Assembly: GCA_039545335.1 (NCBI GenBank)
Contig: BCIN01000001.1
Location: forward strand, 922,208 to 986,207
Reading direction: 5' to 3'
DNA length: 64,000 nucleotides
Source of the DNA: Kondoa subrosea
Lineage: Eukaryota
Below are positions 3,208-50,704 of this stretch, piece by piece. Under the pieces are notes generated by a model, which was given only the letters and a program-made list of their open reading frames with translations, was not told the origin of the DNA and made no database searches. How positions within the stretch are numbered: the first letter of the stretch is position 1; each line of letters opens with the position of its first letter. Both the position numbers and the translations under genes were made by a program.

Positions 3208-3425
3208 AGAGGGAGTTTTGGAATGATTTGATGGTAGTGATTTGAGCATGCGAAGATACCTGGCATTGAATTGGATGGATCGGATCTGTTATTATCATGC
3301 TGAGATTGGCTCAGAACTGCTAGAAAATCGTCGTACGAATGCATATTGTCGTGTTGACCATGGCATCTAGCAGAAGATTGTCCTTTATCAGAACTTAGCC
3401 TCAAGTCGGTCGCTATTATACAGCG

Positions 3426-4857
3426 ATGCACTTCACTACCGTATCATTCTTAGTCCTGGTGGCCTCGGTCTGTGCTAAAGTAACTGAATTACAGATCAGT
3501 CTGTGCCTACCTTAAGCTGCCCTTCACGCTTTGAGCTGATTTCATCATCAAATAGAAACCGTGAATAAGCCTTCAGAATGCTCTATACAGAGTCAGAATG
3601 GCGATAAATTGTCTATGCGTGTGTACAAATTGCGTACTGGAGCGAGTAAAAGGGCTGACATGTTCATGGGAAGACTACACCGGAACATTGGAAAGCGGCA
3701 GCGTTTTCGACTCGTCACGAACTCGTGGAGATCCCTTCCAGTTCACGATTGGTAGCGGAGTATGTCTTATCGCCCTATATAACATATATTGCTGATTGAA
3801 TGTCCAGCAAGTAATACAGATGAGTCGCTTTGGAGACTTGCAGGATTCTGTCTGATGCATCTCTTTACGGATGGGAGAAGGGTCTATTGAATATGTGTGT
3901 AAGTGCTATTGCTGGAAGCCCCAAGTTCTCAGCTGATAGATTAATAGATCGGCGAAGTTCGCGTATTGACAATCCCTGCAAGCATGGGTTAGTAACTGTT
4001 GTTTCATTGCTCGAATATCAGCTGAAAGTATCGTAGGCTATGGCGCGTCAGGCTACCCGCCAGTGTGAGCAGCTTGTGTTTTCATTACTCGCGCATCTGA
4101 TTATGCGCAGCATACCCGGTGATTCTACCTTGATCTTCGATGTCGAGCTCCTGGATATCCTCGTATGCTGTCCAGCCTATGATTTTTCGGTTGCTGACTA
4201 GTGACAATAGAACCGGAAGGCGCCCTCATCTGTCGACGGGCCCGATGTCAAGAAGGAAGTAGAGGTACGTTGAATCTTGCCCTTTTTGTTGTAGAGCTAA
4301 ACAAGGATCCAGGACGCTATTGCTCAAAATCACATTGTCATCTTCAGCAAAAGTTATTGCCCGTGTAGGCTTCACTCTCGTTTGTGCTTGACCTTTCTAA
4401 TATGTCAATGCAGGGTCGAAGAAGGCCAAATCAGCTATAGCAGCCGTACCAAACAAGAAGTCAGAGCCAAAGATCTTTGAGCTCGATCTGCTAGGTGAAG
4501 AAGGGCAGCAAATGCAAGCATACTTGCTACAGAAGAGTGGGCAGCGGACTGTACCTAATGTTTGGATCGGTCAGAAGCATATTGGAGGTGCGTTGGTCGT
4601 CTTGTGCCTGGTTCTAGCTGATCTTGGAACAGGTTCCGATGCGGTATCTGCTCTGGTCGAGAATGATCAACTAGCTAAACTGTGCCAAGGGTGAGCCGTG
4701 TCCATGAGATGATGTAATTTCGCTGAAGTCACGTAACAGTTCATCTGGTTCGTACGGCATGCTGCATTATGGAGCTGGAGCTGCTCTTTTGCTTGCTGTC
4801 GGTTTGGGCATTCGCGCGCTCGGTGGTAGTAAAGGAAGAGCTGGTAAAGAGCCTTGA
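3426..4857 (+). CDS. Secretory-pathway FKBP-type PPIase fused to a monothiol glutaredoxin and a C-terminal TM segment
   Basis: 13 hand-spliced exons. Signal peptide [80 protein letters not shown]. Grx: [47 protein letters not shown]. Confidence 0.85.
3820..3868 (+). other. AT-AC intron with U2-type signals (FKBP-Grx gene)
   Basis: CAG|ATGAGT...CTGATGCATCTCTTTAC|GGATGG, 49 nt; removal gives QVIQ-GWEKGLL. Confidence 0.85.
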
Positions 4858-5002
4858 TCATGTACGACTATGCTCTAGTCGGTCAGCTGATCTGACTCAC
4901 GGCGGATAGCAGAATCATTGAAATTGCATTTACTTACCAGATGTTTGTTAGCAAGACACGACTTTTTCGAGCCTTGGTCTGATTCGGTCTATGGCAAGCT
5001 GA

Positions 5003-6280
5003 CTAGACTCGTGTCATCGCTGTTCTTCCACCTCGAACGGTTATATTCTTGTCGCAGCACTCGCAGCAGATTGACCTTGTCACCTGTTTTGTCGATTGCA
5101 TCGGACTGGACTTGCTCAGGACCATCGTTGAGGGCGGGCTGTCACGATGCTTTTTTACCGCTGTTTCCCTTATGTCTTTCAATTTCTCGTTTTGTTTCTT
5201 CACCTTAATTGACCGACTCTATTTCTCGTTTTCTTTGCCCTTGGTTGACTTACGCCAGCTCCAGTCATTGGCGCAGCTTCACGATGTGCTAACGAGGTCG
5301 GGTCGCTTAATTGCTTACTAGCATTTCATTTCATTCGCAACGGACGTGCGATATGTGCTGATACGTTGCTACGAGCATGGTCGCGTGGAAAAAAGACGCT
5401 CGCACCTCAGCGAGGAGCAAAAAAAAAAGACAACCGACGTGAGCAGGATTTGAGCCTGCGCTCCCAGAAGGAAACAGCTAATTCATTCGAGGCTGCCGCG
5501 TTAACCACTGCAAAGGATGTTAGAACAAATCGGGTGTCTAAAGGAGAAAGCACTTGCCTCCGCCATCACGCCTCTTACGCCACCGGAGCATAATGACCCC
5601 GGTGAAATTGAGATTTTTGCACAGAATGCTCTAAACAAATCTATAAACATAGGTTGAATTTTGTAGGACATACTGACAAGCCCAGTGGGCGACCGTACTT
5701 GCAGCACTGTCCGAAGGATGTTGAGGCTGAGGCTAAAGTGCGGCGGAACCAGCGCACTCAGCCAGTGCATCTTGGCGCAACTGGGCACTCCTCCTCACGA
5801 TTCGAAAACGCGTCGCGGTATCAGTGCCCTGTCTGTAACAGGTAGAGTCTGTTGGGGAAAGGCATTGACAGATGACTCACGGGTATGTGTTGTTCTAAAG
5901 TTGACCTCCAGACCATCCCAAAGCAACACGAAAAGGGCTTCGCTTCACTTGTCTGAAATAAGAAGTCTTTATCGTAACCGCTTGATTTAACGAGGGAGAG
6001 AGTCCAAAGAGAAGTCTATCAAGAGTTGCCAGTGCAAAGGGAAAGATACTCGCAGTCGCGGTTGGAAGAAACGTCGACCAAAATGCAGTTTGGAAAGACG
6101 TGCTGGCCAAAGTCGAGCGTCAAGGCTTCAGTACACCTATGTTCGACCTTTCAAACGGCAACAAGACCTCATGTTGTCAACCTTCCTGTTCTGTGATCTT
6201 GCATCTCATATTTGAAGGCAATCTACGTTGTTCGCATGACCTTGTAATACATCTGGAGCCTGCAAATGCACTATCATGCA
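5003..6280 (-). other. Unresolved locus, possible lineage-specific spliced gene
   Basis: Minus-strand splice-like signals (e.g. GTGAGT at 5880) and short ORFs (5003-5203, K/R-rich), but I could not build a consistent model. Confidence 0.2.
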
Positions 6281-29201: not shown

Positions 29202-30128
29202 ATGGGTGTTGAAGTGCGTCTGGTTGATCTTGAGCTGGCACCTGAGCCTCAGGTGAGAACCATAATGTACAGGTCGAATCTCTATCTGCCGGTGATGGCA
29301 AGAGTGAGTCTCATGTTTAGCGATTTATCGTGAATTGGATTTCTGACGTGCTTTTGTGATAGATTTCCCAAAGAAGGGCGATACGTACGTCTGGATCATT
29401 GCTTTCTCGATACAGAGCTCTAGCGTCATTCTGCACGTACAGCGTCTCTATGGTGAGCTATTGTCATATTAGATCAGCCGAATCGAGACTGATCACTTTG
29501 ATTGGTAGCACTATGTTGGCACTCTTCTAGATGGATCAAAGTTCGATAGCTCCAGAGACAGAGGTACTCCTTTCGTCACTCAGATCGGTCTGTCCCTTTT
29601 TCGCTTAAGATCTGAAACTTGACTGAATACCGAATCGAAAGGTGTTGGACGAGTCATCAGAGGTCAGTCGGCAGCTCCAAATGTGTACAATATAGCTGAG
29701 AATCCTAACATAGGTTGGGATGAGGGCGTTCCCCAGCTTTCAGTTGGTCAAAAGGCAGTCTTGACCTGCTCACCTGATTAGTGAGTTCTTCTGTCCAAAA
29801 ATCGCCGAATCTATGCTTATTGCGTTTTTGCAGCGCTGTATGCTTATTCTCTTGACATTGGATCGCGAACTTATCATGCTCTACAGTATGATAAGTTTTG
29901 CTTATGTTCCGGAAGTTGTGATCTGACCTTACCGTGTGATAATTACGCGCTCGCGGATTTCCCCCTGTAATTCCGTAAGCGTGCTCTGATTGTACTGATT
30001 GGCAGCTCATGTTGATTTCAAATGTATAGCGCCAATGCTACGTATGTCATAATTTGGAAGTGTTCACCTTTCGTGCTGATTTCATCTGCAGCCTCAAGTT
30101 CGAAGTCGAGCTACTCAAGATCAACTAA
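29202..30128 (+). CDS. FPR1: FKBP12 peptidyl-prolyl isomerase, 108 aa, 12 coding exons
   Basis: Exons of 12,31,22,10,79,21,67,4,4,28,12,37 nt sum to 327 nt: [108 protein letters not shown]. Confidence 0.95.
29891..29946 (+). other. AT-AC intron with U2-type signals (FKBP12)
   Basis: TATG|ATAAGT...CTGACC...ATTAC|GCGCTCGCGGA, 56 nt; removal gives YG-ARGFPP. Confidence 0.9.
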
Positions 30129-37000: not shown

Positions 37001-38432
37001 TAAAGACATTTCGAATGAAAGGTTTGGTTTCGCCTGTTGGTGGCACGTCTAAGCCATGCTCTGACGCAAAGCTTCAGACTTCACTGACCTTGCCTAGTGA
37101 CCATATTGGCGATTTGAATGACAGGATCTATTTCGGCTTCCGGGAAAATGCCTTTGCGTCCAGCGCATTCCAAATCGAAGCTCAAAATACGTAATGGAGC
37201 AATCTTGCCCCATTCTCCATCAGGTGCATGAGATACGACATCTTCTGAGCTGTTACACGGGAGTCAGATTATATGTATAATTATTTACTTCAGGTGCACG
37301 CTTACGAGCAATCCATTTCGATTTGACAAAGCGAGATCTTGGAAGCTTCTGATCGTAAAGTATACTTGCCAGCAGGTATTTCGATCCAATTCATGCCCAC
37401 GACCTGTGAGAAATAGGGCTCTTTGAATACTGAATTTGTAAGCAAACACGAGCTGTTCTCACATCTTTATCAATCATAAATCGCAACAGGTAGGCGATGT
37501 TGGACTCATAAGTCAAGAATTCTCCCTTGAAGAGATCTCTGAAAGAGCATTCGCCTCGTTCAAACAAATGTGCAAAGATCACACAAGATAAGTAAAGCTC
37601 CTTTTCAACAGGCAGAGGAAGACTCATTTCGAACTCTGGGTAGATTCTTCTGGTCTGTGACCGTGACCTTGAGAAAAGGAACTTTGTCGTCCCCTTTGAA
37701 ACCCCAAAGCGAGAGTTTGTTGGCTACGGTTACTGATCGAACTGAAACTCCTCCTCCGACACCAGAAGCGGCACCCTGTGGACAGCAAACAACTAATTGA
37801 CATACGTACGTACGAGGAACACTCTTGCTACCCACATTGAGATAGTTCACAAAGTCTTTGCAATCCTCATTTCTGAAACCTTTAGGTGCAGCAACCCAGA
37901 AATAGGGAAGAAAGTCTTTGACATGGCAGAGTAACGAATGACCAGCTTCAGTAACACCAAACATGCGTAAAACAGGACCTTTGTTTGGTTCAGAGTGTTC
38001 TTCTATATCAATTTGCTGGAATACTGTTCCCAAGCCTTTAGCTATGATATATTGAAACACATAGACGCGTACTAAGCTTATCTGTGTTTGCATTGATCTT
38101 CCCCAGTGCAGGACGAGCCCATGCTTGCTTTTCTACCGAAGCTAAGAGAACACATTACAAGCATGAGTCTTCTGAATTATAGACAAACAGGAACAGGGAC
38201 ACAGCTTACTACCAGATTCACCACCGCTAATGCGAGCTAAAACGGATTCGAAGCTGCTTGGCTGGACTTGATCCATTCCTCCTCCTTTAGCTTTACCTTT
38301 GCCTTTGTTTTTACTTGCAGTCTGAGGTACACTTTCAGCAGTCTCCAGTTTCCTCCTCTTCGCGCTTGGAGGTGACAAGACTTCAGTTTGGCCATCTATG
38401 GGTGCGTTCTCTTTTGATCCTGGCGACACCAT
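34006..38432 (-). CDS. POL3: DNA polymerase delta catalytic subunit
   Basis: [50 protein letters not shown]-terminal CLGC..CKNC and CQRC..C..DCPIFY; about 21 introns. Confidence 0.98.
37570..37627 (-). other. AT-AC intron with U2-type signals (POL3)
   Basis: CGAA|ATGAGT...CTTTGCAC|ATTTGTTTGAA, 58 nt; removal gives LPRVRN-LFERGEC. Confidence 0.75.
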
Positions 38433-49685: not shown

Positions 49686-50438
49686 CTACTCTGGTTGAAC
49701 TTCCCAATCCTCTTCAAATTCTCCATTCCGTTCTTCTTCATGATGACGAGGAGGGCCACCTCTGTGCATCCGATGATGTGGTGGTGGTGATCCATGTCTG
49801 CCTGGACTACCGTGTCTTCTTCCTCTTGGATGTCTATGATGATGAGGAGGTGAAGGTGGACCGTGATGAGGGAATCCGGGCATATCATCGCAAGGAGGAG
49901 TAGGGAAATGTGGATGTCCATATGATGGTGGCTAAGCATGAATACAATCAGTGAACACAGCACCAACGAGAAAGGGCAGAGAAGCATACTGGAGGTGGTC
50001 CATAGTGATGCATATGATGGTGCATTCTCATATGGGGTGGCATATGTCTTCCATGATGCATGCCAGGACCTGGAAGATGAGGTGGCTAAGAGACATTAAT
50101 TAGTGCTTGTCAACTTTGTCTGTAAATATGCAGCTTACGGGAGGAGGGAACATCCCATGAGATCCATATCTACCTCTTACGCCTTGTGGCGGACCAGGAC
50201 GAGAAGCAGAAAGGTATTCCGCAAGTAAAGCAGCAGCTTCTTTCTGCACTTCAGGGTCAACCTCACGAGAGGAACGACTTGCTTGGGTGACAGCCGTTTC
50301 CGCAGCAATAACGAGCTTATCGAGAGCTTTGTAGAGAGTGTTGGCGTCAGAGGGTGCAGATAAGGCCACTGTGAGAGACTCAAAGGAAGTTTTGAGTTCT
50401 TCAATAGAAGATATAGATTCTGGAGGTGTGCAAGACAT
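49686..50438 (-). CDS. Hypothetical protein with helical N-terminus and His/Pro/Gly/Arg-rich C-terminus
   Basis: Three exons splice in frame; tail includes PHHGPPSPPHHHRHPRGRRHGSPGRHGSPPPHHRMH. Confidence 0.7.
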
Positions 50439-50704
50439 AGCTGAATCAGAACAAGAAGAGAAGGGAGATTCCTCTAGCTCATATACACGACATCGGTGGC
50501 GTATCCGCAGTGACCGCGCAGTCGTGCGCAGTCATGCGCAGCACATCACGTGCGCTGACTGAAGTAGCCTCTGACGCTATTCAGGCGAAGGGGAGATAAC
50601 TTCAGTGTTGTCATCAACAGCAGGAACAACAGCAGAAAGAGCAGAGAGAAAACATGGATGAAATCGATGATATTGTACGAACACAGACAGAGGTGAATTT
50701 ATAT

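Follow-up and report, generated by a model that had tools for sequence, protein, structure and literature searches.

A predicted U2-type AT-AC intron in an FKBP-glutaredoxin gene of Kondoa subrosea and a small class of similar introns in its genome

A U2-type intron with AT-AC ends needs two changes, each of which is harmful alone, and the catalogued natural cases are few. In human, such introns make up 15 of 185,295 U2 introns (0.008%), e.g., in SCN4A/SCN5A and TAF2 (Sheth 2006, PMC1557818). In the basidiomycete Ganoderma lingzhi 13 of about 92,100 introns (0.014%) are AT-AC, and the intron of chr6g0094801 was confirmed by Sanger sequencing (PMC11590231); the fungal mean is 0.019% (PMC7072748). 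In two further fungi, EST mapping yielded “other AT-AC” introns, namely 2 among about 573 introns for Phakopsora and 31 among about 14,000 for Phycomyces (PMC2846911). In Saccharomyces cerevisiae, a nested AT-AC intron was described in RPL30 (PMC5029451) and rescue by an engineered A1-C(-1) combination was reported (PMC11585973). According to one survey, Basidiomycota lack convincing minor introns (PMC10639083), and a second survey likewise finds none there (PMC11347168).

The intron described here, located in the FKBP-glutaredoxin (FKBP-Grx) gene of K. subrosea, is of this rare, already known kind. It lies in a stretch of 64,000 nucleotides (positions 922208-986207 of the first contig), called the window below, of a genome of 18.9 Mb in 27 contigs. 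Like human type II AT-AC introns, it begins with a strong U2-type donor (ATRAGT), ends in AC and is devoid of U12 signals. Unlike the human introns, it belongs to a short-intron basidiomycete in which a minor spliceosome was not found and in which predicted AT-AC introns are spread over many housekeeping genes unrelated to one another and exceed the human rate of 0.008%. As in Ganoderma, these are basidiomycete AT-AC introns overlooked by gene predictors, and one of them is in POL3. With RPL30 the locus would share AT-AC splicing without the minor spliceosome, for which pairing of the first and last nucleotides offers an explanation; however, AT-AC splicing of RPL30 uses a poor donor and yields a by-product of 1-2%, whereas the FKBP-Grx intron must be removed for the protein to form.

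Spliced alignment of the FKBP-Grx gene (Table 1) to the relative P0002 gives 11 GT-AG introns and one AT-AC intron. The reading frame is open through all 13 exons, and 246 of the 279 residues are the same as in P0002. The protein matches FKBP_C and Glutaredoxin in Pfam, its signal peptide and C-terminal hydrophobic tail were called by reading the sequence, and it may be a membrane-anchored folding catalyst of the ER. The nearest named homologues belong to Cyphobasidiales, Cystobasidiomycetes and Phenoliferia, and homologue matches show that the fusion of FKBP with glutaredoxin occurs in the last two; a limited literature search found no published account of it in basidiomycetes. The glutaredoxin part carries the motif CPWS.

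Table 1. Features of the FKBP-Grx gene and predicted AT-AC introns elsewhere. Positions without a prefix are those of the window; the L numbers listed here denote other loci of the genome.
Feature	Position	Strand	Remarks
FKBP-Grx coding span	3426..4857	+	signal peptide, FKBP, glutaredoxin, C-terminal hydrophobic tail; 13 exons, 279 aa
Upstream GT-AG intron	3760..3807	+	48 nt, phase 0; spliced alignment
Micro-exon QVIQ	3808..3819	+	12 nt, CAAGTAATACAG
AT-AC intron, U2-type	3820..3868	+	49 nt, phase 0; splits VIQ|GW between Q and G
5' splice site CAG|ATGAGT	3817..3825	+	U2 consensus except +1
Internal CAG	3841..3843	+	as acceptor runs into stop 3853-3855
Branch-point motif CTGAT	3852..3856	+	A at 3855, 13 nt before intron end
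3' splice site TAC	3866..3868	+	parse and spliced alignment
Downstream exon	3869..3898	+	starts GGATGG (GW); spliced alignment
FKBP12 AT-AC intron, U2-type	29891..29946	+	second in window; phase 1 in Gly of AYG; after 4-nt exon
POL3 (DNA polymerase delta) AT-AC intron, U2-type	37570..37627	-	third in window; phase 1
CCT AT-AC intron	L011:1501-1553	+	blind scan
LplA (lipoate ligase) AT-AC intron	L152:716-772	+	blind scan
MND1 AT-AC intron	L162:762-811	+	blind scan
RTA1-like gene AT-AC intron	L147:723-773	+	blind scan
GHNH-motif gene AT-AC intron	L104 donor 772	-	blind scan
Unnamed gene AT-AC intron	L017 donor 1564	-	blind scan, 7.2

The original prediction, made from the letters of the window, had a QVIQ exon followed by an intron that begins with ATGAGT, contains CTGAT and ends with TTTAC before GGATGG, and every one of these coordinates and motifs holds. 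The AT-AC parse alone yields QVIQ|GWEKG; the V and I of the micro-exon are V55/I56 in FKBP12 numbering. It had further been stated that the internal CAG leads to a stop and that no GT-AG parse rebuilding the VIxGW motif had been found. Used as an acceptor, this CAG gives D-S-V-stop, the stop being the TGA at 3853-3855 that intron retention also runs into, and none of the enumerated one- and two-intron GT/GC-AG parses restores the motif, which bears out both statements. Spliced alignment to P0002 scores 1233 when AT-AC is permitted and 1187, with the motif lost, when only GT/GC-AG is. Two close relatives, P0001 and P0002 (83% and 88% identical), both read GQVIQGWEKG; they are probably transcript products because their contigs (919 and 945 nt) are too short for introns. 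QVIxGW is kept in all nine aligned orthologues, and a self-trained gene model from which the intron ends are hidden places 3820-3868 first among the non-canonical candidates of the window (score 15.2). These comparisons confirm 3820-3868 as a real AT-AC intron at the level of sequence; its splicing is predicted. A nested (twin) intron was rejected, as 49 nt leave no space for it and the inner GT...CAG spans only 20 nt. For this gene, predictors limited to GT-AG will yield a model with a broken FKBP active site.

That a decaying gene acquired mutations at both splice sites, or that an error in base calling mimics them, is a very improbable explanation of these ends. Contigs from two DNA runs with depths of 143 and 54 (possibly the assembly's own source and thus not independent) have no differing letters over 3400-4900, and no damage is seen elsewhere in the gene. 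The two changes are precisely those known for mutual rescue, and the same AT-AC pair is found in CCT, LplA, MND1 and POL3.

The donor can form six Watson-Crick pairs and one wobble pair with the genome's own U1 over positions -2 to +6, which equals or beats 10 of the 11 GT donors of the same gene over these positions, and it matches the U12 consensus RTATCCTT at two of eight positions. The distance from the branch A to the intron end is within the genome mode of 12-14 nt, and the U12 branch site CCTTRAC is absent from 3820-3868. Searches of the genome for U11, U12, U4atac and U6atac found none of them, while the positive controls U6 (85.8 bits) and U1 were recovered; the U6atac search returned three weak matches, one of which is U6 itself. 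This absence of minor snRNAs agrees with the two surveys of Basidiomycota mentioned above (PMC10639083, PMC11347168). A special U1 for AT donors was rejected, since all four copies of U1 found in the genome have an ordinary 5' end. With its U2-like donor and branch point, and with minor snRNAs not found, the intron is U2-type on every feature examined, its dependence on U1, U2 and U6 being predicted from the signals. The probability that it is instead U12-dependent is practically negligible: its AT-AC ends, and nothing else, would suggest this, against the poor match of the donor, the missing branch site and minor snRNAs, and the finding of PMC10639083 on Basidiomycota.

Very probably, then, we are dealing with a constitutive U2-type (“type II”) AT-AC intron whose excision is the work of the standard major spliceosome. 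The donor would be recognised by U1 and U6 through its near-perfect remaining consensus, offsetting the missing G at +1, and the CTGAT motif by U2. In the second step, a non-Watson-Crick pair between A(+1) and C(-1) may replace the usual G-G pair, so that TAC would be preferred to the neighbouring AGs; this first-last pair is proposed by analogy with the yeast work (PMC11585973). Joining of QVIQ to GW would complete the FKBP active site, and the micro-exon would be a mere neighbour with no role in the mechanism. A G at exon position -1 is found in 7 of 10 AT-AC introns versus 64 of 279 GTRAGT introns (p=0.002; the donor matrix used biases the selection mildly), and AG at the exon end in 5 of 10 versus 27 of 279 (p about 0.002; slightly favoured by the same matrix). 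This stronger exon side of AT-AC donors fits compensation for the lost G at +1.

For the AT-AC introns of FKBP-Grx and FKBP12, two independent origins had been proposed, and this fits with what was found: the sites are some 25 codons apart, the phases are 0 and 1, and at each site another FKBP gene has a GT-AG intron. Because the sites and phases differ, the two introns are not homologous, and their separate origins are likely. Exactly where FKBP-Grx has its AT-AC intron, and likewise in phase 0, a GT-AG intron lies in the ER-type paralogue (L001); at the FKBP12 site a GT-AG intron of phase 1 is present in L098, an FKBP from a metagenome. The simplest reading of GT-AG introns facing both AT-AC introns is conversion of ends, and we consider it somewhat more likely than not that the FKBP-Grx intron arose in this way from an older GT-AG intron and was then trapped, since going back takes two changes. 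One base downstream of the FKBP-Grx AT-AC site, GT-AG introns are seen in FKBP12 and in the nucleolar FKBP. Homology of the L001 intron is putative, as the tree of FKBPs has no starred branches and the identity of FKBP-Grx to L001 (59/101) is barely above that to FKBP12 (49/88). No orthologous locus of FKBP-Grx was present among the three loci obtained in one metagenome pattern scan, these being L098, L099 (phase-2 GT-AG) and the intronless L100, a false match. Around the VIx-G motif, introns of FKBP genes occupy three adjacent bases (phases 2, 0 and 1; window positions 3820 and 29663, L001, L003, L098 and L099), possibly through intron sliding or repeated (parallel) gain.

A different origin with the same present-day splicing was put forward in PMC2831892, namely that such introns are relics of ancestral U12 AT-AC introns, the inner signals of which became U2-type upon loss of the minor spliceosome while the ends were trapped. 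That the confirmed AT-AC intron of Ganoderma POL3 lies within the same 1-kb span as that of the window hints at a great age for this intron at least, and the POL3 intron may be a single intron conserved between two subphyla. For the FKBP-Grx intron we nevertheless find a U12 relic unlikely, given that other FKBP genes have GT-AG U2 introns at either of the two sites and that a CCTTRAC remnant is absent. In addition, U12 AT-AC flanks of Phytophthora, Rhizopus and Phycomyces, a small sample compared by eye, match none of these junctions, and one AT-AC intron sits in an RTA1-like gene, which belongs to a fungal family. The U12 AT-AC intron of a Phytophthora “PPIase” was dismissed as an FKBP counterpart, its 20-nt flank giving no FKBP motif by eye, and a limited literature search on a U12 or minor intron in FKBP3 returned nothing. 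The primers used for the confirmed Ganoderma intron, read by eye, encode HITDF and GEQKED, which flank the POL3 site of the window, and both spans hold about six introns.

We scanned for AT-AC introns using a candidate score defined as the gain of the gene model when an intron is permitted, with the end bases hidden and a threshold of 7.5. The self-trained model predicted 1,157 introns (median 53 nt) in a 600-kb sample, i.e., about 36,000 genome-wide, and a simulation put the sensitivity of the scan at 22/38. In the window, AT-AC accounts for four of the top five candidates (FKBP-Grx, FKBP12, POL3 and a doubtful one), and three AT-AC introns in about 120 are far over the genome average. A GT donor lying 4 nt upstream, or translation starting at a later ATG, accounts just as well for the doubtful candidate (50428-50482 on the minus strand, score 7.9), which was left uncounted. 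In a cross-validated random 600-kb sample (~1,157 predicted introns), none of 27,659 candidates, including 2,618 AT-AC ones, exceeded 7.5, which argues against a rate above about 0.5%. Plain motif counts revealed no excess of A..C in 600 kb, and genome-wide 237 A..C were observed versus 230 expected (Y..C 370, A..W 587, Y..W 944; odds ratio 1.03, p=0.77), which excludes a large AT-AC class and means that the class is small.

Scoring was applied to the first 100 of 237 strict pattern hits (6.9 Mb covered) and to the first 100 of 636 loose ones. Among the matches listed, 7 of 104 strict AT-AC candidates passed, compared with 0 of 102 matched controls (p=0.014), as did 1 of 69 further A..W candidates, which has the same donor as a true case. 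Besides the FKBP-Grx intron, the seven comprise introns of CCT, LplA, MND1 and PAQR and of two genes putatively labelled GHNH-motif (L104) and RTA1-like (L147). The FKBP12 intron passed as a loose-pattern hit, and L017 fell just below the threshold. An AT-AC intron in a GH3 gene scored just 4.5, so the scan misses true cases. Among single-end mutants, A..G (0/3,580) and G..C (0/2,364) candidates never exceeded 7.5. For G..A, 2 of 2,941 candidates did; these GT-AA candidates (L073, donor 9700, plus strand, 12.0; L085, donor 5148, minus strand, 7.7) are possibly broken acceptors or model noise.

By this count AT-AC introns form 0.6-0.7% of the introns that fit the strict pattern, with a 95% range of 0.2-1.4%. 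As a share of all introns, counted in DNA, the floor lies between 0.045% (with the window left out) and 0.07%. Assuming that the strict pattern captures about one in three AT-AC introns, as it does in the window (1/3), the rate would be roughly 0.1-0.3% of introns. Both this DNA-derived floor and the estimate appear raised above the curated figures, such as the 0.014% of Ganoderma. They are, however, not without precedent, since the data on Phakopsora and Phycomyces correspond to non-U12 AT-AC introns at 0.2-0.35%, mapping errors possibly included. No published rate for related basidiomycete yeasts was found in a limited literature search, and one may exist. The scan with matched controls provides a new count of AT-AC introns in this genome.

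The original prediction also saw in FKBP-Grx a repeat, elsewhere in the protein, of the FKBP12 arrangement of a micro-exon with an AT-AC intron. Both arrangements are real and at different sites; the implication that the arrangement is special found no support, as an exon of 15 nt or less adjoins one of eight non-FKBP AT-AC introns versus a background of 107 of 833 internal introns (13%). With the FKBPs included, three of ten AT-AC introns have such a neighbour (p=0.13), and a tie between AT-AC introns and micro-exons is not supported. Both FKBP genes are split into very short exons, and since AT-AC introns recur genome-wide, the two FKBP cases require no common cause. Micro-exons are frequent in basidiomycetes, occurring in 9% of Coprinopsis gene models (PMC12230235). 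One could imagine that selection favoured AT-AC ends because they keep the 12-nt exon from being skipped, as skipping would join a GT donor to an AC acceptor, and a micro-exon does precede the AT-AC intron in both FKBP genes and a 12-nt exon follows that of L104. We find this quite improbable in view of the background frequency just given, and skipping to the AGs at 3877 and 3880 would still be possible as GT-AG.

The AT-AC introns in CCT, LplA, MND1 and the RTA1-like gene are newly found. The LplA exons on either side of the intron match two directly adjoining stretches of the Pfam family, positions 71-125 and 126-159; CCT, MND1 and PAQR have a family match in one flank, and a Pfam search of the flanking exons of L104, L017 and POL3 gave no match. 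More important than the single FKBP-Grx intron are the excess of AT-AC introns across the genome and the chance that the POL3 intron is shared with Ganoderma. As a tentative proposal, which we judge possible rather than probable, a yeast without a minor spliceosome or a special U1 would keep, in core genes (POL3, CCT, MND1, LplA, FKBPs), some 40-100 U2-type AT-AC introns whose removal is obligatory. This would be about ten times the curated Ganoderma rate, and the introns would have been repeatedly converted from GT-AG ends, at least one (POL3) being common to Agaricomycetes. If this is true, the genome is a natural test set for how a double change is crossed and persists. A compact genome with dozens of AT-AC introns, some opposite GT-AG introns of paralogues, would allow conversion to be tested against a U12 relic origin, and likewise donor compensation (G at -1, 7/10). 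Finally, elsewhere in the window, at 5436-5570 on the minus strand, there is a tRNA-like sequence with an insert of about 55 nt of the GT...AG form, as judged by eye.
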